Positions 665 through 59,492 of a DNA stretch of 64,000 nt are shown here, one piece after another. Position 1 is the first letter of the stretch. Each line of letters starts with the position of its first letter. A program made the translations under genes and the position numbers. Source of the DNA: Eledone cirrhosa (taxonomy: Eukaryota); contig OZ024747.1 in the NCBI GenBank assembly GCA_964016885.1, positions 76,136,001-76,200,000 of the forward strand. The letters run 5' to 3'. The notes beneath the pieces were generated by a model. That model was not told the origin of the DNA. It saw only the letters and a list, made by a program, of their open reading frames with translations, and did no database searches.

Positions 665-720
665 ACTGTTATATATATTTCGATGATAGCCATTGAATGG
701 CTATGACCTCATCAGGCAGT
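665..720 (-). ncRNA. Minimal type I hammerhead motif in a short TA-flanked fragment (620-770)
   Basis: Minus strand: ACTGC-CTGATGA-GGTC-ATAGCCAT-TCA-ATGGCTAT-CATC-GAAAT-ATAT-ATA-ACAGT-AAATAAA. There is one mismatch at the base of stem I. Confidence 0.65.
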
Positions 721-2165: not shown

Positions 2166-2696
2166 GTTGGTTAGTTCAATTTGTTTTAGTCAGTCCTTCA
2201 TGTTTTTAAGTTTCAGTATTTTCGTCTGATATGTGTTTATTATTGTCTCGTATTTCTCTCCTACTAATTGTCTCATGTAATCCAACAATTACATTGTCTC
2301 TTATTATTCATCAATGAAAAGTGATTAATCATGTTTGCCTCGTTACTACGTCATCTTCCTGTGGATTCTTTTCCGAATAGTTGATATGAAGATATCCCAA
2401 CCAGTGTGATATCTTCAACAATGTACAGTTACAATAGCATACAGAAACCTGAGATATCCTCTCGAAGACTTCACACAAAACCGAGGGCTGAAGATCTGAT
2501 AAGGTTTTTGTGTTCCATTCGTATCCAGTTTCATTTACAGAGTTTTCCAATGCTAAACAGAATTTTGTCTAAACTTGACTATATATATATATATATATTA
2601 TTATGTAAAAAACAACATAAGGCAATTATTCCATTTACCAGTGGTTTCTTAAAAGCAAAAGGTTTTCCGATGGAATTACTTCACATATATATATAT

Positions 2697-2773
<77 letters not shown>

Positions 2774-2780
<7 letters not shown>

Positions 2781-3482
2781 ATGTCCATAGAATCATTAGA
2801 TAATATATATACACCATTTCCTCTCCCAATTAGCATAATCAATCACACAAAAAAACAATTAAACCAGGCTATAAGATTAAAAGGCACCTATGAAGAAATA
2901 GTGGATAAATAAACGACAGACATCTATTCGCGGTTAACCGCTATAGAATATTTACCCAACATTTCAATAGCACGTGGAAATCGATTAAATATACCGTCAA
3001 CCATACACAATTAGGTATAAAATTAAAGTTAGAAGAAAAAATGCATATACACATACCAGGACTACGTTTCTACACTTACGGTTTCGTTCGCTTTCGGAAA
3101 TATCCTATCAAGGATAAATTCTCGAGCTTCGAACTCGTCAGGAAACAAACTCACTTAGACAAAGAATTTTCCTAAAAAATCCCCGCCAGAAACGAATTCA
3201 AAATGACTAAGAACTGTGACGTGGCAGTGGTCAAGTCAGAAAGAATGTGATTGGTGCCTACGGCGAGTAGGCTGGTTGCTAAAAAGCGCAGCCCAATATT
3301 GCCAAAATTGCATCTCAACCTTATGGGAGATTATCAAATATAAAGATTTACATATACAAAAACTAGACAAAATCAAAGATATATATGTTTTGGCAACCAT
3401 TCACGATGTGGCTCAATGATGAATTAATAAATTAAATAATCAGAGCAATATACTATAAAGTATGTCCATAAAATCATTATAT
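2774..3482 (-). mobile_element. ~680-bp non-coding HHR-carrying element with ~30-bp terminal direct repeat; distant relative of the 560-bp family
   Basis: TATAAAGTATGTCCATA(G/A)AATCATTA at ~2774 and ~3454, with (TA)n on the left. An inverted fragment of itself follows (3482-3542 vs 3321-3380). Confidence 0.7.
3066..3146 (-). ncRNA. Type I hammerhead ribozyme
   Basis: Minus strand: GTTTC-CTGACGA-GTTCG...TATCCT-TGAT-AGGATA...CGAAC-GAAAC-CGTAAGT-GTA-GAAAC. Stem I is GTTTC/GAAAC and the cleavage triplet is GUA. Confidence 0.8.
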
Positions 3483-3602
3483 ATCTGTGACTTTGTCTAG
3501 TTTGTGTATATGTAAATCTTTATATTTGATAATCTCCCATAATATAATTGAAAAGGTGGAGAATAACATGGTCAACAGTACAAAAAAGGGGGATTTATTT
3601 GT

Positions 3603-3710
3603 AGTCTAACAATTGTTTCACTGCTAGAGTTGTCTAAAAATTGCTGAACACTAAAAGCAGTGCCACTCAATTTTACATATGATGTTAACTCTACTAGATC
3701 ATCGGAAACT
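3603..3710 (-). ncRNA. Hammerhead-like motif, CCGAUGA core variant with long stem II
   Basis: Minus strand: AGTTT-CCGATGA-t...TAGAGTT...AACTCTA...t-GAAAC-AATT-GTT-AGACT, then AATAAA. Confidence 0.5.
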
Positions 3711-4094
3711 GATCAAAACATATATGTGTAACCGACAAATTTACAAATTCAAATTACATCATCAATAATAATATTAATAAAGATATAGAGAGAAAAGGAG
3801 GAAGAGAGGGAGATAGATACAGTAAAGAAAGAAAGGAAAGGAAGGAAAAAGAAAAAGAAAAAGAAAAAGAAAAAGAGAAAGAAGAAGAAAAGGAGAAATT
3901 ATTATAGATAGAAATATAAAGAGAGGAAGATATGTAGAATATGATGGTATATAGATGAGTGACAAACGTAAATAAGAATAAACGTATGATAGAGAGAAGA
4001 GAAGAAGGATAGAGGGACAAATAGATGAATAAACGTTAATGCGTAAATAAATGTAAATAAAAAAATATATATATATATATAAAAAATGTATGAA

Positions 4095-4748
4095 AAAATT
4101 GTGAAAATATGTTAATGTTAAATATATTTATGTGTGTATTGGTTATTTTAATAAATAAATTAATTAATTAGTTTTAAGTTATATTATATGATAAAATAGA
4201 ATGGCAGATATGAGATAAACAAGATGCAAACATAGAATATAAAATCAACTGGACAAAGCTATCAAAAGCAAAGGCCTATCAAATTGGTATGTCCCACTGT
4301 GGTCTCTGTAATATGGAACTTTTTCAAATTTTAAATTACAACAAAATTCTTCTTAATTACAAGATTCTTCTTAACATTTTTTTGTCGAGATAAATCAGCA
4401 ACTCAATTTGAGAACTTTAGAGCAGCTTAATTCCATCTTATCTATTCCATAACACAGATTGTACCACTTGGATCTATTATAATATCACATTATCAACATC
4501 ATCATCATTATAATTATAACTATAATTGTCTTCATCTATCAAAGAACGACATCAAAACCTCTTATATTTACATTCTTATTTTATATATATATTTTCACTC
4601 TTTATCTTAATATGTCTCTTCCTAAATCTATCTCATATCTGTCATTCTATTTTATCATATAATATAACTTAAAACTAATTAATTTATTTATTAAAATAAC
4701 CAATACACATATCAATATATTTAACATTACCATATTTTCACAATTTTT
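4095..4748. repeat. Inverted repeat: ~125-bp AT-rich arms around a ~400-bp spacer
   Basis: AAAAATTGTGAAAATATG...ATAGAATGGCAGATATGAGATA (4095-4217) versus TATCTCATATCTGTCATTCTAT...CATATTTTCACAATTTTT (4629-4748). Confidence 0.8.
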
Positions 4749-7367: not shown

Positions 7368-7581
7368 ATTTATTTTGTTTTGACCTGTTTAGCTTTATTT
7401 GCTTTTTGGCTTAGGTGGTTGATGCTTTCTCGACCACTATTTCAGTTTTGTATGGCCTCTTAACATATTGTTTAGCTCTGGCTTTTTAACTATGGAGCGC
7501 TTGCCAGCATTATTTCTGATTTATTGCGTTTCGTTTTGCCTTTTCTACCCGCCGAAATGCGATTCTCGCTAAATCTATATT

Positions 7582-7664
<83 letters not shown>

Positions 7665-8076
7665 TTCGGCGAACGCAGGGAAGTACGTGGCTCTAATGAA
7701 CGCCAACCAACGTGAAAAGACTGTCAGATTCTCTCCCTTCTTTCGCCGAAAACAAAAGTGACATAGTCACTACTTTAAAACTGATAGCGTATGGTCTTCT
7801 AAATGTTTTTAATTAAACATACAGTATATTGCCAAATATACTATACATACATTCACATATATATATATAAATTCAGCGAGAATCGTATTTCGGCTGGTAG
7901 AAAAAGCGAAACAAAACGCAAAATCGTAGATATGCTGGCAAGCGCTCCAATAGTTAAGAAAACTAGAGCTAAACAATATGTTAAAACGCCATACAAACTG
8001 AAAAAGTGGTCAAGAAGGCGTTAACCACCTAAGCCAAAAAAACAAATCAAGCTAAACAGGTCAAACAAAATAAAAT
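7368..8076. repeat. Diverged inverted pair (~210-bp arms, 7368-7580 and 7862-8076) around (TA)n tracts
   Basis: TTTGACCTGTTTAGCTT...TGGAGCGCTTGCCAGCAT...ATTCTCGCT versus its reverse complement, with many substitutions. Confidence 0.85.
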
Positions 8077-18566: not shown

Positions 18567-18651
<85 letters not shown>

Positions 18652-18656
<5 letters not shown>

Positions 18657-19249
18657 ATACTTGGGGAGGGTCAATTTTGTGAAATAATATTGCCAGAATT
18701 AATAACAGAACACACTCACTGTTTGGTTGGTTTTCGCTTCTGTGTCTTTTATATCGGTTAATTTAATTTATTCGGTCCTCAATGTTACCATTGACTGACC
18801 AACCGTCAAAAATACAGATACAATATAGACACAAACACATATATATAGTCTAACAAAGTTCTTTCGTTGCAGATCTGCAACATCGTCAGTGGTGCTATTA
18901 TGTTTCCTCCCGTTCCATTGTATGCCTACGCCATCTTTATTTAGTCTGTTTATTTATTTAAATAAATAAACAAGAATAAATAAAGATGGCGTAGGAAACA
19001 TAATAGCACCACTGACGATGTTGCAGATGTGCAACGAAAGAACTTTGTTCAACTATATATATGTGTTTGTGTCTATATTGTATCTGTATTTTTGACCGTT
19101 GGTCAGTCAATGGTAACATTGAGGACCGAATAAATTAAATTAACCGATATAAAAGACACGGAAGCGAAAACCAACCAAACAGTGAGTGTGTTCTGTTATT
19201 AATTCTGGCAATATTATTACACAAATATGACCCTCCCCAAGTATAACAA
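18652..19249. repeat. ~600-bp near-perfect fold-back palindrome next to (TA)n
   Basis: TTGTTATACTTGGGGAGGGTCA... / ...TGACCCTCCCCAAGTATAACAA, centred at ~18960 (TTTATTTATTTAAATAAATAAA) with a ~17-nt bulge at ~18909-18925. A terminal fragment also occurs at ~35871-35893. Confidence 0.92.
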
Positions 19250-19295
19250 TATTTTTTTCGACACACGATTTCATATCAAAAACCTCGCAAAACTA

Positions 19296-25675: not shown

Positions 25676-25711
25676 TCTTAACGTTTCGGACGCTAGTCCT
25701 TCATCAGAAGA
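25676..25711 (-). ncRNA. Ultra-minimal hammerhead motif (Penelope pLTR type)
   Basis: Minus strand: TCTT-CTGATGA-A-GGAC-TAGC-GTCC-GAAAC-GTT-AAGA. Stem III is reduced to the palindrome AACGTT. Confidence 0.7.
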
Positions 25712-28796: not shown

Positions 28797-28892
28797 ATAA
28801 TAATAGTAATAATAATAAATTTGAAGACTAAAATCCAAAGAGGGCTCGATAAGGATAAATATATATCAAATATATAAGAACCGTAGAGCAAA

Positions 28893-29635
28893 TATTTATT
28901 AAAATAACAGATTAAAGTTTAAGCAAGGAATCGCTGCTTTCACCCTTAACGGGATCTTCTGAAACTAACAAAGTCAATCTGTAAACGCAGAACTGTATAT
29001 TTCAAAAAACGTTGCAACCGGAGGGAGACAGGAAGACGATACTTTGGTTGTTGGAAACGTTCGCTGGCAAAGAACGGGAAAAAACGAATATAATACGCCA
29101 TTAATAGGAGCGGTGAAAAACAATTACGCGCAAAGACAGAACCACGTTTATGGTATAATAGAGGGCGTAGACTAATGTTCTCTTAGGTGGTGCATAGAGA
29201 TTCATTCAGTCTCCTAGTTAGAATTTAGTCTACGACTTCTGCTATACCATTTACGTGGTTTTGTCTTTGCGTGCTATTGTTCTCCACGCTACACATATTA
29301 CGTATTATCTTCGTTTTTTTCGTTCATCGCCAGAGAACGTCTCTATGCACCACTTAAGAGAACATTAGTCTACGACCTATTTTATACCATAAACGTGGTT
29401 CTGTCTTTGCGCGTAATTGTTTTTCACCGCTCCTATTAATGACGTATTATATTCGTTTTTTCCCGTTCTTAGCCAGCGAACGTTTCCACGAACCAAAGTA
29501 TCGTCTTCCTGTCTTCCTCCGGTTGCAACGTTTTTTGAAATATCCAGTTCTGCGTTTACAGATTGACTTTGTTAGTTTCAGAAGATCCCGTTAAGGGTGA
29601 AAGCAGCGATTCTTTGCTTAAACTTTAATCTGTTA

Positions 29636-29641
<6 letters not shown>
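28893..29641. repeat. Inverted pair of a repeat family also present at 140-582, ending in (TA)n
   Basis: 28893-29200 is the reverse complement of ~29340-29641. 29201-29641 matches 140-582 at high identity and contains a diverged ~140-bp internal tandem duplication. Confidence 0.9.
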
Positions 29642-29724
<83 letters not shown>

Positions 29725-35405: not shown

Positions 35406-35609
35406 ATAGTTATGTAATAAACAACATAATGCAATTATTCCATATACCAGTGGTTTCTTAAAAGCAAAAAATTTTGCTTTCAATCCTCAGAAGGAAAAAA
35501 TCCTGGGACTAGGATTTTTTCATTCTGAGGATTGAAAGCAAATTTTTTTGCTTTTAAGAAACCACTGGTATATGGAATAATTGCATTATGTTGTTTATTA
35601 CATAACTAT
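35406..35609. repeat. ~204-bp fold-back palindrome inside a TA-flanked element (35341-35610); family also at 2600-2685
   Basis: ATAGTTATGTAATAAACAAC... / ...GTTGTTTATTACATAACTAT, centre ATCCT-GGGACT-AGGAT. Confidence 0.9.
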
Positions 35610-39512: not shown

Positions 39513-40812
39513 TGTTTCTTTTATTTGCCACTAGGGCATCAAAAGTGGGACAAGTACAAAGAGGGGAGTTTACACAAAAAGGCGTCCTCAATAAGGAGGA
39601 GGCAATAACAAAACATAAAAATAAAATAAGATATAACAAAAAATAAAATTTATAACAAAATCCTCAATAGAGAGGAGGCGCCTTGGGGGGTCGCACACAC
39701 CCCCGAAAAAAGTGTGCAACCCTTCTCCTCAGGAGCACAGAGAAGGGGTGCTCCCTTGGTCTTTCATCTTCTTCACCTATAGTCTGATGTAGAGTGAAGG
39801 CCCATTCACACGGGCCATTCTCGCCACTTTCACCCATCTTTCATAGAAACGGCTGGGGTGCAGCACCTCTCTCTCCATCCTGATCCTTCTTCCGAAATGA
39901 TATCGGAAGAAACGGACCAGTTGTTGGCCAGAGAGAAAGGTGCCTGACCTCAGTCCTTTCAGACGCGTCCACCATACAACCTCTTTCGCCATGGCTATTA
40001 CGCACAGAAACACCGCCTCTGCTTCATCTTTGAAGGGGGGAGGCGGCTTGATCATTACAATAGACTCGGTGGTCAACCGGATCGGTCCCACCCTTGACAG
40101 CAGTTGTTCGACATAGCCCCACAGATCGGCTACGCCCGAGCAGTGTACCAATGCGTGTGCAACGGTTTCCTCGTCGCACACGCATCTGGGACAGATCTTT
40201 TTGGCGGGGTCCCTACCCGGGCGCCCGTGTCTGTAGAGCCTTTCTCGAACGGGTAAAGCCCCTCGGTAGCACTGCCAGGCCAGGGACTTCTGGAAGTTGT
40301 CCATAGGTCCCGGGCTGAATGTCCTACCGAACAGGCTGGCCAGTTCATCCTCCTCCATGTCTAGGGCTTCTCCGAGGGCGTCGTCGCACCTGCTGCGTAC
40401 CAGCCCTCTATAGAATGTTGCGGTGGAGTCTCCACTGATAACCGGATCCGCCTGCCAGAGGGCGGTGAGCGCCTGGGCACACTCAGTGTGCCAGGCGCCC
40501 AGTTTTCTCGGTCTTTGCTTGACCCAGGATTGCAGCTCGGTGAGTGAGACGAGTCTGGGAAAGGTTCGTCTCACAAACGAGGCCCACACCGGTTGTCCGG
40601 TGAGGAATACGTAGAGATGCCGTAGCCTTAATGCGTGTTTACGCATCATTAGCCACGGCATCCCCAGCCCTCCTTTCGAAGGGTGTTGACAGCAGATGGA
40701 TCTCCTCACCATAGGAGCCCGCCTCTTCCAAAGGAATTGGAAGAGCGCGCGCTCCATCTTGGTGAGGGTTTCCCTTGGGCAGGGCACTACGGTCAGGCGG
40801 TAGTAGATGACG
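39513..40812 (-). mobile_element. 5'-truncated second Tx1 copy (diverged subfamily): ORF2 C-terminus + 3' UTR
   Basis: The ORF from ~40812 to 39777 aligns to the C-terminal part of the upstream copy (YYRLTVVPCP...CPRC...RVNGPSLY). It has a similar 3' UTR with AATAAA and is bounded by GATA repeats on both sides. Confidence 0.92.
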
Positions 40813-40871
<59 letters not shown>

Positions 40872-41085
40872 TTCTTTATTTACCATAAAGGCATAAAAAG
40901 AAGGGACAAATACAAAGGGGGAGTTTACATATAATCGAGTAAAAAGGGTGTAACATGAAAATAATCGAAAATAACCTCAAAAGGGAGGGGACGTGATGGG
41001 GGTTGCACACACCCCCGAAAAAGTGTGCAATCCTTTGCCCGGGGAGCACATGGAGAAGGTGCTCCCCTCTCCTTTACTTCTTTAC

Positions 41086-44000
41086 CTACAGGATGGTATA
41101 CAGAGAAGGCCCATTTACACGAGCCATTCTCGCCACTATCACCCACCTTTCATAAAACTGCCTGTGGCCAAGCACCTCTCTCTCCATTCTTATCCTTCTT
41201 CCGAAGTGATATCGGAAGAAGTAGACCAGACTATGGCCAGAGAGGAAGTTGCCTGACCTCAGACCTTTCAATCGTGTCCACCAAACAACCTCTTTCAACA
41301 TGGCTATTACGCACAGAAAAACCGCCTTTGCTTCCTTTGTGAAGAGGGGAGGCGGTTTGATTGTCATCACGGACTCGGCGGTCAATTTAATCGGCGCCAC
41401 CCGCGACAGCAGTCGTTCGGCGTAGCCCCACAGATCAGCCACGCCCGGACATTGCACCAATGCGTGCGCAACGGTTTCTTCGTGACGCACGCATCTAGGG
41501 CAAATCTTTTTTGTGGGATCCCTGCCCGGGCGCCCGTGTCTGTAGAGCCTCTCTCGAACGGGTAGAGCCCCCCGGTAGCACTGCCAGGCCAGTGACTTCT
41601 GGAAGTTGTCCATTGGTCCTGGGCCGAAAGTCCTACCGAACAGGCTGGCCAGTTCGTCTTCTTCTATGTCCAGCGACTTCCAAGGGTGTCATCGCCCCTG
41701 CTAGCCACCAGCCCTCTATAGAATGATGAGGTGGATTCTCCACCGATGGCCTGGCCCGCTTGCCAGAGAGCCCTGAGCGCCTGAGCACACTCAGTGTGCC
41801 AGTCTCCCAGTTTTCCGGATCTTTGCTTGACCCAGGACTGTAGCTCGGTGAGCGAGACGAGTCTCGGAAAGGCTCGTTTCACGAACGGAGCCCACACCGG
41901 TTGACCAGTGAGGAATACCTGTAGGTGCCGTAGCCTTAATGCGTGCCTACGCATCATCAACCACGGCATCCCCAGCACTCCTTTCGAAGGTTGTTGGCAG
42001 CAGATGGATCTTCTCACCATAGGAGGACGCTTCTTCCAAAGAAATTGGAAGAGCATGCGTTCCATGGTGGTGAGTGTTTCCTTAGGGCAAGGCACGACAG
42101 TCAGGCGGTAGTAAGTGACGGACGCTATGTAAATGTTCGCCACCTCCGCCCGGCCTTTTAGGGACAGCTTACACTTGGCCCATTTCTGGGTTAGTGCAAA
42201 CACCTTGTTCGTAACCTCGTTCCAGTTCTTTTCCACCTGGAGGTCCGGTCCAAACCAGACCCCAAGCAACTTTACCGGGCCCTCCGTCCAGTGTCTGACG
42301 ACACCGTCAGGAGGCATCGGTCTGCCTCTCCACGTTCCGAGTTGCAGCCCGATGGATTTTTCCCGGTTCAGTTTCGCTCCTGACAACCTTTCGTACTCCT
42401 CCAGTAAGGTACCGATCGCCTCGATCTCCGAGTCGGTTGATACCATTACTGTTACGTCATCGGCGTAGGCCGACACCGCTTTGCTCAATCCTGGTTCCGG
42501 GGGGATACCCTGCAACAACTCCAACTTCCTCAGTAAAGGCTCGAGAGTCAATACGTACAGAAGGGAGGAGAGAGGGCACCCCTGTCGAATGGATCGTGTG
42601 ATTTCGAACGGCTTCGAAAGGTAGCCGTTCACCATGATCCTAGAACAGATGTGGTTGCTATGTAGGGCAGTGATCCAGCCTCTGAAAACAGGACCGAACC
42701 CAGCCGCCGCTAGCACCGCATCCAGGTAACCATGGTCGACCCTATCGAAGGCCTTAGACTGATCCAAGTTGATCAGGGCCCCACCGAAGCCGGGTTTGTT
42801 GCCAACCCTCTCTATGATGTATCGCATGAGGTGGAGGTTATCGTGAATGGACCTGGATGGGATAGCACATGTCTGCGCATCTCCCACCAGGCCACCCACG
42901 ACAAGCGCCAACCTCTTTGCTAACACCTTGGCCAAAATCTTTAACTCTGTGTTTAGCAGGGTTATGGGCCGAAAATTATTTATACTATCCCCCTTGTTCT
43001 CGTCCTTCCTCACCAGCGTGACTACGCCCTTGGCTACAGAACAAGGAATTCTCCCGTTCTGCTGCCAATTGCAGTAGACCGCTTCGAGGAGTTCGGAGAA
43101 GAAGACCGGCATTGCTAAATAAAGTTCGTAAGGTATACCATCGAGACCTGGAGAATTGCGTCTGCTGCTCAGCGCATCTCCGATCTCATCAGCCGAGATT
43201 GGTCCCTCGCAGGACTCTGCCTCTTCGTTCGAGAGATGCGGCAGGCCGTCGAGGTATGGACCGAAATCCACGCCCCCGCCCGGACCCTCGCCTCCCCCGA
43301 ACGATCGGGCAAAGTGCCTTTGAAAGGCCTCGCACATCTGCTTAGGCTCCCGGATCACCCGTCCATCTTCGTCTTGCAACGACCGGATGGTGGATCGATT
43401 TCCACTCTTAGCTTCTGTCCCGCGGGCCCATCCAACGGCTTTGGCCCCCTCATTACCTAGAGCACGTATTTTACTTCGAATGACGCAGCCTTCGTGCTTT
43501 GCATCGAAAAACTGGTTCAAGGCCGTCCTCGATGCCAGCACTCTGGCCACATCTTCGCTCTTGATTGCCTCTTCTAATTTACCTGTTAATTCTTTCTCGT
43601 TTCTATTCCTATCGGCAGCTAACATCTTGCTATGACTTATTGATTCTGTTCTAATTTCTCTTTTGAGAGATGCCCACCATCGGTTGTTGACGATTGCACC
43701 CGTCAACCTCTCCTTAACTAATCTGCTAATCCGGTTTCTGTAAGTCTCTTTTGCCGGTAAAGACAAATTAAGTTTCCAGTAACCGGGACCCTGTCTATGT
43801 GTTTTCTCGAGATTGACCACGCAGGTCACTAATTTGTGATCCGTGTAGCCAACCGTGCGCATTTCTGGACAGCTTAATATGTCCCTATCCTTACTTCTAA
43901 CTAAGAATCTATCTAAGTACGATCTAGATTGACCACTGTGGTTTCTCCAAGTCCAGGTAGGCACAGTTGGAAAATCTAGTCGATATCTATCGACCAAGTT

Positions 44001-44516
44001 AAAACGGTCGAGTAACCCCTTGAGGCTGTTACACCCCCCTCTATTAGGACATGCTCCTGCATAGTCCCAACGTGCATCCAGGATGTCATTCCAATCCCCC
44101 GCTAGAAGCAGGGAACGCGACGTTCCCAGAAAAGTCTTCAAACGCTGGAAGAAGTCGGGCCGTTCAGTTCCGAAAGGGGAGTAGACGGCGACCAGTCTCA
44201 AGGCCGCACTTTCACTACTGCCAACGTCTAGCACCAACAAACGACCCTCCGGGTCCGAGTGCACAACCTGTACGGCAAGACCCAGGTGTTTTTGCAGCAG
44301 TACGACAACCCCACCCCCACCTCCAGGTTGACAGAGAGATGCATGCACCTCAAAGTCATCGAAGGTGGGGGCCAGCTGCCGCACGACGCTGATTCGAGTC
44401 TCACAGATAACCATTACATTTATACTACATGACCTGAGGTCATTTAGAAGCTTTGCTTGCTTCCAAGTTGAGCCCAGGCCACGTGCATTCAAACATCCTA
44501 CTCTTAACACATCCAT
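41086..44516 (-). pseudogene. Tx1-clade (L1 group) LINE ORF2: APE endonuclease + reverse transcriptase + C-terminal zinc-binding domain, with one frameshift near 41678
   Basis: 950-aa ORF 44516-41664 with APE motifs (LNARGL, ICETR, GDWND, SYLDRFL, TDH) and RT motifs (SPGLDGIP, FRPITLLN, DQSKAFDRVDH, IRQGCPLS, AYADDV). It continues in another frame to 41086 with CPRC...EETVAHALVQC. Comparison with the second copy (DDALGEALDMEED) indicates a 1-bp deletion. Confidence 0.93.
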
Positions 44517-44549
44517 GTGGGCGGCAGAGCCAAAGGAGAGTGTAGAGAC

Positions 44550-46100
44550 CTACCTTTCCGCTTCCCGGGGTTCGGGTTGCACGACTTCCATGGGGTCGGG
44601 GGTGTTGGGTGAAGGGGTGTCTTGTGGTGGTGTGGGGTCGTCAGTGTGTGGTGGGGTTGGGGTGTTTGGAGTTGTGTTGGGGAGGGGAAGGGGAGGGGGA
44701 AAGCTTTTTAGTAGGACGCGGTTTATGGGTTTGACAGAGGGTGGTCCTACGTCCTCCTTAAAATCCTTTTTTAGATTTTGGTAGAGGTTCATTGGGATCT
44801 TTATTAGTTTTAAATGTGGGTAGTTTTCTGACGAAACAAAGCTTACACCTTCGGTTTGTACCGAAGGATTATTGTATATGAGCTCATTTAATTTATTATT
44901 GTTTCTGTTGATGTAAGTATAGTGTAATGTCTTTTTTTCCGATGGTGTGAGTGTTTCGAAGAGGGGAGGGGCAGGTTTGGTTTTGTTTGTTGCTGGAGGG
45001 GTGTTTTCTGTTTTGTTGGATTGTGTTGAGATTTGGGTGGGGGTTGTTTGTCCTTGTGTGTTTTGCACATGTTTTCTATTTTTCCTTTTAATCTGTCTGA
45101 AGGACTCCGTTTCTTCCTCCGAATTCGTTGGGTTATCTTCAGTGTTGGAGGGAAGAGTATGTTTGCTGGTAATGTTTCCGTGTTGGTTTTCTTTGTGGGG
45201 GAGATGGATGTCACTATGTTAGACTATGTTGTGTGTTGTGTCTGCGGTGGTTGTGTTGTTTTATTGAGTGAGAGGTTGGGTGGGCCTGTATTTTGTTTTG
45301 GGGTAATGTGTTGTGACTGTTTGTGTTGTGGTGGTGTTGTGGTTTTACTGAGGGACGGGTTGGGTGGGACTGAGTTTTGTTGTTTGTTTATCTGTTGTGG
45401 TGGTGGTGGTGGAGCTGGTGTTGGTAGCAGGGTTTTCTTTTTTGTTGAGTTGGGGACAAGCGGCCTTCAGGTGCCCTCTGCCTGCACAGATATGGCAGGA
45501 CGGCCTTCTCCCCTCCACGCTAATGTTTATATACCCATGGTCCTCTAATAGCATTCTGTCGGGTATTTGGGCGATGCGTTCAGGCTTCATTTGTACTACC
45601 AGCTCTATACCTGTTCCACTGAACGCATTGCCTGTGGTTTTCCCAATGGAAATCACGTTGTCATTCACTGGATCGATGAAGCCAGCTATGAGCCAGCAGT
45701 AGTCCACATCTGGCATCATTGCATCCAGCCATATGCGTTGAGTTCTTTTCCCCATATAAGATGGATAAAAGGTGACATTTTTCGAACGAATCGGTGACAA
45801 AGCACATTTTTTTGCCGCCGATTCGTTCTTCATGATAATTGCTAGGCTTCCATACAGTCTGTCTTTTCTTATGAAAGTGGTATCATTAAGTACTTCTGTG
45901 AGTACTGTTTTGATATCTGCTTGAGAAGGCTGTTCAGGTTTTTTTGTACTGTTGTTGATGGTCCGAAACTTGACCGTTCGGCTTTCAATGTCTTTCGTGA
46001 ATTCTTGAGGCATTTTTACCGATAAAATACCATTCTCTCCTTCACTTATGTATTGTTTGGCGTCCGTGATCCTTCGTACCACATCTGAAATGTTTTCCGC
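44550..46100 (-). pseudogene. Tx1 LINE ORF1 (gag-like, CCHC zinc knuckle, Pro/Thr-rich tail), disrupted and 5'-truncated
   Basis: ORF 46082-45345 contains CHICAGRGHLKAAC (CX2CX4HX4C). The frame is open right up to the (GATA)n tract with no ATG. Low-complexity P/T/Q-rich pieces continue in shifted frames to TAG at 44552-44550. Confidence 0.8.
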
Positions 46101-46101
46101 T

Positions 46102-46159
<58 letters not shown>

Positions 46160-46160
46160 G

Positions 46161-46237
<77 letters not shown>

Positions 46238-46252
46238 ATAGATGGATAGATA
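46102..46252. repeat. (GATA)n microsatellite
   Basis: Direct reading. Confidence 0.98.
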
Positions 46253-46464
46253 GAGAAGGATATATGCACGAATTTGTAGGGAGAATTATATTTTTATATC
46301 AAAATATATATTCTGCTTGCAAAGCTTACTTTTAATATACTGGAAATATTTACACTTAAATATTACTTTTGAAAGAATGAAAGATTACAATGTTTAGTAT
46401 TAACCAATAGTATTTGAGCTAATTAAGGTGTAAGATGACTGAACTAATTATATTGTCGTCTATT

Positions 46465-49595: not shown

Positions 49596-50022
49596 CAATA
49601 TGTAGAAAAGATAACACACCAGAGTATGGAATCTATAGCCCTTGGAAGGCAAAGACACAATAATTAAAAGTATATAACGATAAATTTATCGTTATATATA
49701 TATAATGATAAATTAACGGAGCTATAGACTCTTGCCATTCCCTGTCATTAATGAGCTCAAGGGAGAAGGAATCCCGAGCCCTTTATAATACAATATGTAG
49801 AAAAGATAACACACCAAATTAGTTGGTGAAACAGATCCTTTTGGATTTGTACGTGTGTGTTAGATAGTTATCAAGGTATGTGTTTGCACTTTGATTTATA
49901 CTTTTAATTATTGTGTCTTTGCCTTCCAAGAGCTATAGATTCCATACAATGGTGGTTTTTCCCTGTTTGACTGATGGCGCACTGTCTCTTTCTCTCTGGT
50001 GTGTTATCTTTTCTACATATTG

Positions 50023-55360: not shown

Positions 55361-55425
55361 AAGTAAAACGGAGTATAAGTATCAAAATGAAAATCCGAAG
55401 GCAAGGTAAAATTCCAATCATTTAA

Positions 55426-55499
55426 TCACGACACATGTTTCAATAAGAGATAGATCGATTGTGAAGCCATGATCGATTATCACTGACCTCATCAGGTGA
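55426..55499 (-). ncRNA. Type I hammerhead motif (left arm of palindrome)
   Basis: Minus strand: TCAC-CTGATGA-(long stem II with ATCGAT/ATCGAT)-GAAAC-ATGT-GTC-GTGA. Confidence 0.7.
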
Positions 55500-55635
55500 A
55501 AATGAATTGTCTTCAAGTTCTTGATATGAGGGAGAAAAAATAACGATGTTCTCTCACAGAATTCATTCCCTCATATGAATTCTGTGATAGAACATCGTTA
55601 TTTTTTCTCCCTCATATCAAGAAGACAATTCATTT

Positions 55636-55709
55636 TCACCTGATGAGATCAGTGATAATCGATCATGGCTTCACAATCGATCTATCTCTTATTGAAACAT
55701 GTGTCGTGA
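55636..55709 (+). ncRNA. Type I hammerhead motif (right arm of palindrome)
   Basis: TCAC-CTGATGA...GAAAC-ATGT-GTC-GTGA, with canonical GUC triplet at 55703-55705. Confidence 0.7.
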
Positions 55710-55750
55710 TTAAATGATTGGAATTTTACCTTGCCTTTGGATTTTCATTT

Positions 55751-55822
<72 letters not shown>

Positions 55823-56326: not shown

Positions 56327-57052
<726 letters not shown>

Positions 57053-57260
57053 TATATATATATATATATATAGATAATTTAATATATCAACTAACATAAG
57101 CGCACAGATGCACGCCCATGCCAGCAAATACACAGGTTATGTCATAGTACCTAGGTGGTTCAATGCAGGAGAATGCAGAACAATAATATAAAGGACGTAA
57201 AATAAGAAAATATTTTTTTTTTAAAAATTTAAAAAACATTTTTTTCTTACTTAAATTTTC

Positions 57261-57342
57261 ACTCCAACTAATTAGTTTCTGCAATGGGATAAAGACAGTT
57301 ACGTAATCCAACTGTCGAGAATTCATTGCGTCATCAGGAAGT
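57261..57342 (-). ncRNA. Type I hammerhead ribozyme (array copy, inverted arm)
   Basis: Reverse complement of the 58027-58108 motif. Confidence 0.85.
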
Positions 57343-57823
57343 CTATTCTCAGTTAAGTCTCCAGGCAATGCGCGGACACTGGCGGCTCATATAAAAATAA
57401 TAATAATTCGGTAGATCGAACAGCTTGCGAGGACTGGATTCTATGTACCGAAATTCTCACTGCTTCAAGTCAAATGGCCGATTCTAAAGAATCAATCACG
57501 TGACACAGAGGCTAGTTAGAAGGAATGGGATGGTAAGATGACTGACGCCTACTAACACCCCAAAAAAAATTTTTTTTTTTTAGAAGTGGTTTTGACAAGT
57601 TTGCTCGACAAATCAGTGATTTGGAGATAAATATAGATAATTTAATATATCAACTAACATAAGCGCACAGATGCACGCCCATGCCAGCAAATACACAGGT
57701 TATGTCATAGTACCTAGGTGGTTCAATGCAGGAGAATGCAGAACAATAATATAAAGGACGTAAAATAAGAAAATATTTTTTTTTTTTAAATTTAAAAAAA
57801 ATTTTTTTCTTACTTAAATTTTC

Positions 57824-57905
57824 ACTCCAACTAATTAGTTTCTGCAATGGGATAAAGACAGTTACGTAATCCAACTGTCGAGAATTCATTGCGTCATCAG
57901 GAAGT
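57824..57905 (-). ncRNA. Type I hammerhead ribozyme (array copy, inverted arm)
   Basis: Reverse complement of the 58027-58108 motif. Confidence 0.85.
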
Positions 57906-58026
57906 CTATTCTCAGTTAAGTCTCCAGGCAATGCGCGGACACTGGCTGTTCGATCTACCAAATTATTATTATTTTTATATGAGCCGCCAGTGTCCGCGCA
58001 TTGCCTGGAGACTTAACTGAGAATAG

Positions 58027-58108
58027 ACTTCCTGATGACGCAATGAATTCTCGACAGTTGGATTACGTAACTGTCTTTATCCCATTGCAGAAACTAATTA
58101 GTTGGAGT
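58027..58108 (+). ncRNA. Type I hammerhead ribozyme (array copy)
   Basis: ACTTC-CTGATGA-c-GCAATG...GACAGTT/AACTGTC...CATTGC-a-GAAAC-TAATTA-GTT-GGAGT. Stem I is ACTTC/GGAGT, and cleavage is predicted after GUU at 58103. Confidence 0.85.
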
Positions 58109-58586
58109 GAAAATTTAAGTAAGAAAAAAATTTTTTTTAAATTTTTTTTAAAAAAAATATTTTCTTATTTTACGTCCTTTATATTATTGTTCTGCATTCT
58201 CCTGCATTGAACCACCTAGGTACTATGACATAACCTGTGTATTTGCTGGCATGGGCGGGCATCTGTGCGCTTATGTTAGTTGATATATTAAATTATCTAT
58301 ATTTATCTCCAAATCACTGATTTGTCGAGCAAACTTGTCAAAACCACTTCTAAAAAAAATTTTTTTTGGGGTGTTAGTAGGCGTCAGTCATCTTACCATC
58401 CCATTCCTTCTAACTTGCCTCTGTGTCACGTGATTGATTCTTTAGAATCGGCCATTTGACTTGAAGCAGTGAGAATTTCGGTACATAGAATCCAGTCCTC
58501 GCAAGCTGTTCGATCTACCGAATTATTATTATTTTTATATGAGCCGCCAGTGTCCGCGCATTGCCTGGAGACTTAACTGAGAATAG

Positions 58587-58668
58587 ACTTCCTGATGACG
58601 CAATGAATTCTCGACAGTTGGATTACGTAACTGTCTTTATCCCATTGCAGAAACTAATTAGTTGGAGT
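58587..58668 (+). ncRNA. Type I hammerhead ribozyme (array copy)
   Basis: Identical to 58027-58108, offset +560. Confidence 0.85.
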
Positions 58669-59146
58669 GAAAATTTAAGTAAGAAAAAAATTTTTTTTAA
58701 ATTTTTTTTAAAAAAATATTTTCTTATTTTACGTCCTTTATATTATTGTTCTGCATTCTCCTGCATTGAACCACCTAGGTACTATGACATAACCTGTGTA
58801 TTTGCTGGCATGGGCGTGCATCTGTGCGCTTATGTTAGTTGATATATTAAATTATCTATATTTATCTCCAAATCACTGATTTGTCGAGCAAACTTGTCAA
58901 AACCACTTCTAAAAAAAAATTTTTTTTGGGGTGTTAGTAGGCGTCAGTCATCTTACCATCCCATTCCTTCTAACTAGCCTCTGTGTCACGTGATTGATTC
59001 TTTAGAATCGGCCATTTGACTTGAAGCAGTGAGAATTTCGGTACATAGAATCCAGTCCTCGCAAGCTGTTCGATCTACCGAATTATTATTATTTTTATAT
59101 GAGCCGCCAGTGTCCGCGCATTGCCTGGAGACTTAACTGAGAATAG

Positions 59147-59228
59147 ACTTCCTGATGACGCAATGAATTCTCGACAGTTGGATTACGTAACTGTCTTTAT
59201 CCCATTGCAGAAACTAATTAGTTGGAGT
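59147..59228 (+). ncRNA. Type I hammerhead ribozyme (array copy)
   Basis: Identical to 58027-58108, offset +1120. Confidence 0.85.
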
Positions 59229-59437
59229 GAAAATTTAAGTAAGAAAAAAATTTTTTTTAAATTTTTTTTAAAAAAATATTTTCTTATTTTACGTCCTTTA
59301 TATATATATATATATATATAAAATGATTCCAGTTCCTCAGTGAAATAACAACCCAACCAGGAACTGGGCATATCAGAGTATTGACAAAATTATACACCTC
59401 AACAACATATGTACTTGTCTATACCACACTAATTCAG

Positions 59438-59492
59438 ACTGCCTGAAGAGGTCGCAGCCAAAGATGGCTGTCACCGAAATATATATAGCAGT
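59438..59492 (+). ncRNA. Minimal type I hammerhead ribozyme in a TA-flanked element (~59320-59640)
   Basis: ACTGC-CTGAAGA-GGTCG-CAGCCA-AAGA-TGGCTG-TCACC-GAAAT-ATAT-ATA-GCAGT-AATAAA. Same architecture as 665-720. Confidence 0.8.

Follow-up and report, generated by a model that had tools for sequence, protein, structure and literature searches.

Element A, as we call the element at 2774-3542, is probably an insertion, now decayed, of a high-copy, non-coding repeat that has a predicted hammerhead ribozyme and would have been copied by a borrowed Penelope-like element (PLE) reverse transcriptase/endonuclease from two preferred sites of a more-than-unit RNA. It lies in a window of 64,000 nucleotides (the whole stretch that was analysed) of AT-rich and microsatellite-rich animal DNA, which also contains the 543-bp unit (element B, 56440-57053, minus strand) and the 560-bp unit (element C, about 57068-59299). 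The explanation is built on the following observations: two opposed arms are joined at their truncated 5' ends, their 3' ends lie at unit positions 0 and 134, and a (TA)n tract stands on one side. Unit position 0 is the 3' end of arm 1, termed site 1, and unit position 134 is site 2. The parts are as follows.

2685-2773, unstranded: (TA)n microsatellite, adjoining the 3' end of arm 1
2774-3483, minus strand: arm 1, the 681-nt unit (3454 to 2774) plus 29 nt, with its 5' end at unit position 653
2774-2802, minus strand: terminal redundancy, downstream copy, 27/29 identical to 3455-3483
3455-3483, minus strand: terminal redundancy, upstream copy, period 681
2888-3056, minus strand: candidate intron, with a GT donor 15 nt past the predicted cut and a pyrimidine-AG acceptor-like site at 2888
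3066-3146, minus strand: type I hammerhead motif with its predicted cut after 3071 (GUA), self-cutting being a prediction only
3183-3254, minus strand: putative promoter-like words upstream of the ribozyme (CCAAT, CACGTC, GGCGG)
3312-3331, minus strand: small bulged hairpin, CUC-C...G-UY-GAG, common to A and the 543- and 560-bp units, 124-125 nt downstream of site 1
3478-3542, plus strand: arm 2, a sense copy, 65 nt long and 5'-truncated, of unit positions 70-134

Arm 1, whose 3' end at 2774 abuts the (TA)n tract, and arm 2, whose 3' end at 3542 has zero microhomology to the flank, meet head-to-head with a short AT-rich overlap (3478-3483). The terminal direct repeat about 680 bp apart, reported in the preliminary description, was confirmed as 29 nt with 2 differences and a period of 681; with the TA overlap included it measures 36 nt at 91.7% (BLAST). 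The inverted 60-bp piece of the element said to follow it is likewise present, as 65 nt, 62 of which are identical to 3385-3321. The (TA)n tract at 2685-2773 is the likely insertion target, and at the outer end of arm 2 the flank reads TATAATT at 3543, so that the AT-rich or (TA)n target of PLE-type insertions is seen on either side. An inverted 5'-truncated copy adjoining the 5' end was found in A and in the 560-bp insertion. The redundancies vary from unit to unit (29 nt in A, 71 nt in the 543-bp unit, 1.4 units in the 560-bp unit) and represent partial tandems with variable 5' truncation. The A copy itself comprises 1.04 units with a single ribozyme, in place of the two ribozymes that characterize an animal non-LTR retrozyme, and is a monomer derivative.

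Directly left of A, at 2605-2683, a short 3' fragment of the family represented at 35406-35609 lies between two (TA) runs, thus elements are stacked here in one TA tract. On the right side arm 2 is adjoined by a separate high-copy repeat (3543-3760). Other copies of this repeat have different letters before 3540, where they appear as loose ends, and to the eye these differing letters bear a loose resemblance to the site-2 region of A, so that A may have entered a sister repeat or become joined to one. The 46-aa frame of this flanking repeat was discarded as a coding candidate, as it had no Pfam match and its sole library match was a 2,166-aa repetitive bacterial-type protein, with a score that added up 19 weak stretches.

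The genomic family of A was checked in reads, using contigs aligned at 80% likeness; runs X1-X3 come from one sample and X11, a RAD library, from another study. The region 2500-3800, which includes the second repeat in the right flank, was covered by 4,318-4,722 contigs per run in X1-X3 and by 163 in X4, while 284 nt of A alone gave 1,153 contigs (X2) and 1,390 raw reads (X11). X5, a run under another organism label that may come from a relative or from a mixed sample, contained the family at low depth (19 contigs). The depths add up to 10^4-10^5, as against 5-16 for most of the long pieces listed (X1-X3), which suggests thousands of copies, as an estimate from depth and not a count. The contigs of X1-X3 join 3478 to 2803, and the unit continues from 3478 in 94 raw reads of X11 and in contigs of X5. 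Since other copies run through 3455-3483 into the unit, the overlap is a head-to-tail unit junction, an organization found in the A copy as well as in other copies; for the same reason the 29-nt repeat could be ruled out as a target-site duplication. Relative to A, the X1 contigs showed A>G 15, T>C 21, C>T 24 and G>A 18 times, and no clear strand bias of the kind expected of RNA-editing scars was visible among the changes in the contigs. Two 24-25-nt motifs of the window had 0 matches each in metagenome scans.

To judge from the sequence comparisons, A is likely a distant relative of the 543-bp unit, with a significant but modest similarity. The short colinear blocks noticed earlier were recovered: all four occur in both elements and in the same order (3195, 3216/3229, 3293 and 3326/3338 in A; 56730, 56751/56761, 56829 and 56853/56862 in the 543-bp unit). 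In the segment upstream of the ribozyme the two scored 302 against a shuffle mean of 134, a value reached by 0 of 500 dinucleotide shuffles (z 9.2) and exceeding those of all 474 real slices of the window (best 205). With block shuffles the score was equalled in 0-1 of 400 in six settings, and the similarity also survived removal of the ribozyme. Under BLAST-like scoring the match was marginal, at 4-5 of 400 shuffles, and 20 of 300 for whole units. In an nhmmer search with A as query the 543-bp unit was the only non-self match in the window (E=0.0014). The 543- and 560-bp units are 68% identical to each other. Compared directly with the 560-bp unit, A was not significant (11-119 of 400 shuffles), and a search with a profile of the 543- and 560-bp units missed A. 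The scores, together with an agreeing architecture (the C3-to-cut distance and the spacing of the GT donor), make the kinship of A likely but distant. Thus the earlier placing of A as a third, distant member is supported with respect to the 543-bp unit, significant against shuffles, but not with respect to the 560-bp unit.

The failure of A to match the 560-bp unit or the profile is what would be expected if A were a satellite or dispersed repeat formed at the DNA level, its redundancy and inversion arising by local duplication and rearrangement and its likeness to the 543-bp unit by convergence of AT-rich sequence and a ribozyme-like motif. Local satellite-type amplification of retrozymes is indeed discussed by Li et al. 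(bioRxiv 10.64898/2026.07.22.740005). We regard this origin as very unlikely, since the similarity to the 543-bp unit holds without the ribozyme, under block shuffles and against the real slices, the insertion at 57-59 kb repeats the two-armed layout with matching ends, and other elements of the window have inverted arms too.

The predicted hammerhead of A (minus strand) consists of the core CUGACGA (3141-3135), GAAA (3085-3082) and the GUA triplet (3073-3071), with a helix I of 5-6 bp (GUUUC/GAAAC), a 5-bp helix II carrying a long extension, and a helix III of 2 bp. The distance from C3 to the cut is 71, 70 and 72 nt in A and the 543- and 560-bp units, respectively. A hammerhead descriptor matched 8 loci in the window (one in A, one in the 543-bp unit, five in the 560-bp units and one at 25707) and had 0 matches in 30 block-shuffled windows. 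Rfam did not report the hammerhead of A at the gathering score, nor at E<=10, and the active fold (-18.0 kcal/mol) compares with -22.2 for the minimum-energy fold. At positions 3079 and 3074 most genomic contigs differ from A (1,885/1,900 and 2,089/2,171 of the depth in X1), and the majority letters would lengthen helix III to 4 bp. The copy in A is therefore decayed, and the ribozyme once called intact can be described so only in part: the core is complete and the GUA triplet is present, but helix III is weakened at these two positions compared with most contigs. The distance from the cut to the 3' end is 297, 78 and 76 nt in A and the 543- and 560-bp units, and the segment before the ribozyme is shorter in A; the ribozyme stands in the middle of A because approximately 220 extra nt follow it. 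Elsewhere in the window a compact minimal motif (CUGAUGA-AGGAC-UAGC-GUCC-GAAA) was seen at 25680-25707 (minus strand), with a TA run 102 nt away. A related pair of hammerhead-like motifs, in which GAAA is followed by an ATATAT stretch, was observed at 678-715 (minus strand) and 59443-59479 (plus strand), each beside another element of the type of A.

The ends of A are probably non-arbitrary. Counted from the 3' end, the distance to the ATCTCC anchor is 124, 125 and 125 nt for A and the 543- and 560-bp units, and further anchors stand at 144, 145 and 149 nt (GCAA..TTG), 235, 228 and 246 nt (GTCAC) and 253, 246 and 263 nt (GAAT) from site 1. Since these distances match, the 3' end is homologous in all three units. 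A had been thought to be cut at a different point because its end was measured against the ribozyme, whose spacing shifts; the ATCTCC offsets place the cut at the homologous position in the three units. Equally, the description of the end-points as arbitrary is not supported by the 3' ends in the window: three of three ribozyme-side ends share the anchor offset, and two of two second arms end beside the same hairpin. The 5' ends of the units in the window do vary. The 560-bp insertion is two-armed: its plus-strand arm spans about 2.4 units and ends at site 1, and its minus-strand arm ends at unit 117-122, which is 5-10 nt before the hairpin; arm 2 of A ends within the hairpin loop. The separation of the two sites is accordingly 134 nt in A and 117-122 nt in the 560-bp unit, and the 30-40-nt tail of PLEs was not found. 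The site-1 ends agree within 1 nt as defined, and within about 4 nt allowing for microhomology. In one X4 contig a (TA)n stretch precedes 3448, a position no more than 7 nt from site 1. The agreement comprises three site-1 and two site-2 ends in the window, plus this contig.

In case of a circular or multimeric RNA copied from arbitrary starts, short TA matches to the (TA)n target would alone decide the ends. TATA words with 1-5 nt of flank microhomology are indeed present at site 1 of A and at both ends of the 560-bp insertion, these two ends lying on 2 of the 4 TATA clusters of that unit. A has 11 such clusters, and under a TA-microhomology model site 1 would be hit with a chance of about 1 in 11. 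No pile-up was visible at either site among the best-supported 24 of 920 and 18 of 183 loose ends listed for the whole family, and raw-read depth did not fall at 3321. Arbitrary starts are nevertheless unlikely in our view, since all three site-1 ends share the ATCTCC offset, site 2 of A has no microhomology and yet lies at the shared hairpin, and the further X4 contig ends within 7 nt of site 1.

Some loose ends were rejected as termini. The X11 pile-ups at 3306, 3309, 3425 and 3430, with 111 mixed loose ends behind 3309, are restriction-site artefacts: the only three AATT words in the stretch (3306, 3422, 3430) match the pile-ups of this RAD library. Most of the loose ends listed (2807, 3221, 3255, 3391 and 3407) mark positions at which A or a subfamily departs from the majority.

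More elements with inverted arms were noticed at 28892-29648, 18649-19252, 35406-35609, 55374-55761, 7409-8034 and 49617-49954, and several of them have hammerhead-like motifs and a (TA)n end; wherever the arms were viewed by eye, both end at nearly the same site, unlike those of A and the 560-bp insertion. The latter (57068-59299) is a young two-armed insertion of the 560-nt unit with five hammerheads whose helix III is palindromic (C-UAAUUA-G, GUU triplet). Its units differ at 3 substitutions, and on the unit its two 5' ends are separated by about 40 nt.

The small hairpin at 3312-3331 may be considered as a candidate recognition or start signal for the reverse transcriptase, a weak and post hoc proposal. 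It is the minimum-energy fold of each 31-36-nt piece in A and in the 543- and 560-bp units, and those listed variants of the stretch 3312-3331 that reach at least 20% are at loop positions (3322, 3324). Its fold energy was not significant against shuffles, and RNAalifold on the plain alignment gave another structure and did not recover it. A descriptor, written after the three hairpins had been seen, had 5 matches in the window, all in these families, compared with 0.235 per shuffled window. We tentatively consider a wider proposal, which is possible though more doubtful than probable: across retrozyme families that lie beyond BLAST alignment, both start sites of the reverse transcriptase would be fixed relative to the hairpin (one at it, the other about 124 nt upstream), even as the spacing to the ribozyme shifts by 220 nt, so that the hairpin, and not the ribozyme, would be the conserved cis-signal that recruits the Penelope enzyme to an RNA circle and sets it to copy from either side of a DNA break. 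A adds a natural comparison here, as a distant family that keeps its end positions and its hairpin and moves its ribozyme, whereas the young families show the layout of an insertion better than this old copy. If the pattern of ends and hairpin holds over many copies, it names an RNA element to be mutated in an in vitro Penelope priming assay of the type described in PMC11167929.

Concerning the coding content, the longest stop-free frame within A is 88 aa and has no Pfam match; the GC content of the unit is 0.34. The words CCAAT, CACGTC and GGCGG are ones that we take to be promoter-like, and TCACGT/CACGTC is the sole such word at a matching place in all three units. A GT donor-like site follows the predicted cut by 15, 16 and 16 nt in A and the 543- and 560-bp units, and the candidate intron spans most of the approximately 220 extra nt between the ribozyme and the end of A as compared with its relatives. 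An Rfam match to mir-1006 at 2884-2983 (E 0.16, 22 of 64 bits) was taken as chance. The ORF of an autonomous PLE, with reverse transcriptase and GIY-YIG endonuclease, was absent from A in frame and Pfam scans, and no autonomous PLE was found in the window among 74 selected frames and 8 others scanned. The only reverse transcriptase match was an endonuclease-RT LINE at 39662-46298, which has a 961-aa frame with RVT_1 and Exo_endo_phos and a second 3' portion in tandem, 83% identical.

The promoter-like words, the hammerhead and the GT donor just after it resemble a pseudo-LTR (pLTR), and according to PMC4209133 the hammerheads of PLEs in genomes mostly occur singly and in association with truncated PLEs. 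A could accordingly be the pLTR of an autonomous PLE left by a 5'-truncated insertion, its 681-nt unit not being independently mobile. This appears quite improbable, as the unit closes on itself, with its own 3' end upstream of the promoter-like part, in A and in other copies, no ORF remnant is present, and the related 560-bp unit runs in tandem for 2.4 turns.

Under the preferred explanation, copying by a borrowed PLE enzyme, the unit would be transcribed, cut by its ribozyme and probably ligated. Acting in trans, the PLE protein would bind near the small hairpin, nick AT-rich DNA and prime cDNA synthesis from both broken ends, at site 1 and at site 2. The site-1 cDNA would make a full turn plus 29 nt, passing through the ribozyme junction, the site-2 cDNA would stop after 65 nt, and the two would be joined by microhomology. 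Since arm 1 is unbroken through the ribozyme cut site and extends beyond its own start by 29 nt, its template must have been longer than one unit; copying arm 1 from a cut linear monomer would take a jump, while a circle or an uncut multimer would serve as it is. Hence, of the circular or multimeric RNA template proposed before, the more-than-unit part is supported by arm 1, and its form may have been a circle or an uncut multimer. As a matter of judgement and not of measurement, within the PLE explanation we would give a circle about an even chance, an uncut linear multimer a somewhat smaller one, and a template jump on a cut monomer the smallest. The stronger helix III that is likely in the family argues mildly for cutting and re-ligation, that is, for a circle. 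In the 543-bp copy the 5' end (region 56983-57053) lies 8 nt downstream of the predicted cut site (unit 473 vs 465), which argues, again mildly, for a template whose 5' end was made by the ribozyme.

Several elements of this explanation have precedents. The idea of a circular template is already published, for more-than-unit PLE copies in 2014 (PMC4209133) and, together with mobilization by PLEs, for animal retrozymes by Cervera and de la Pena in 2020 (PMC7229834). A 2026 preprint by Li, Clavereau and Pollet presents animal retrozymes as non-autonomous derivatives of PLEs with units of 51-972 bp (bioRxiv 10.64898/2026.07.22.740005). By the authors' own account, in the Discussion sections of PMC7229834 and 10.64898/2026.07.22.740005, the entry of retrozymes into DNA is proposed and not shown. 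Two-armed retrozyme insertions with two end sites were not found described in the open-access literature searched. PLE insertions are described in PMC8557442 as partial tandems with an adjacent inverted 5'-truncated copy and a preference for (TA)n. A Poseidon protein was reported in PMC11167929 to cleave AT-rich DNA on both strands and to begin reverse transcription at two internal sites of the RNA, which lie downstream of the hammerhead and close to a stem-loop; the ends of genomic copies fall on the two start sites, and uncut RNA was the main substrate in vitro.

Compared with the non-coding PLE dependants known from Chlamys PLEs such as MRC1 (PMC8557442), A shares pLTRs and head-to-tail multicopy insertions, but those elements are algal and the Naiad/Chlamys group is reported there to be without canonical hammerheads. 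With the insertions and pLTRs of PLEs (PMC8557442, PMC4209133, PMC11167929) A has in common the partial tandem, the inverted truncated copy and the (TA)n target, as well as a hammerhead upstream of the 3' end with short helices I and III, two end positions, and a likely start near a stem-loop. It differs in the absence of an RT/GIY-YIG ORF, in ends 134 nt apart in place of a 30-40-nt tail, in a long helix II region (about 45 nt), and in that no autonomous partner was found in the window. Known here from its DNA only, A works like an animal non-LTR retrozyme: most of the features tested fit, and the pair of ribozymes alone is missing. Like these retrozymes, as they are described, A is non-coding, of low GC (34%), head-to-tail and of high copy number, with one type I hammerhead. 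Its unit of 681 nt is longer than the 150-450 bp given in PMC7229834, but falls inside the 51-972 bp of the preprint; the single ribozyme of the copy, the opposed arms and the two preferred 3' ends are features of A.
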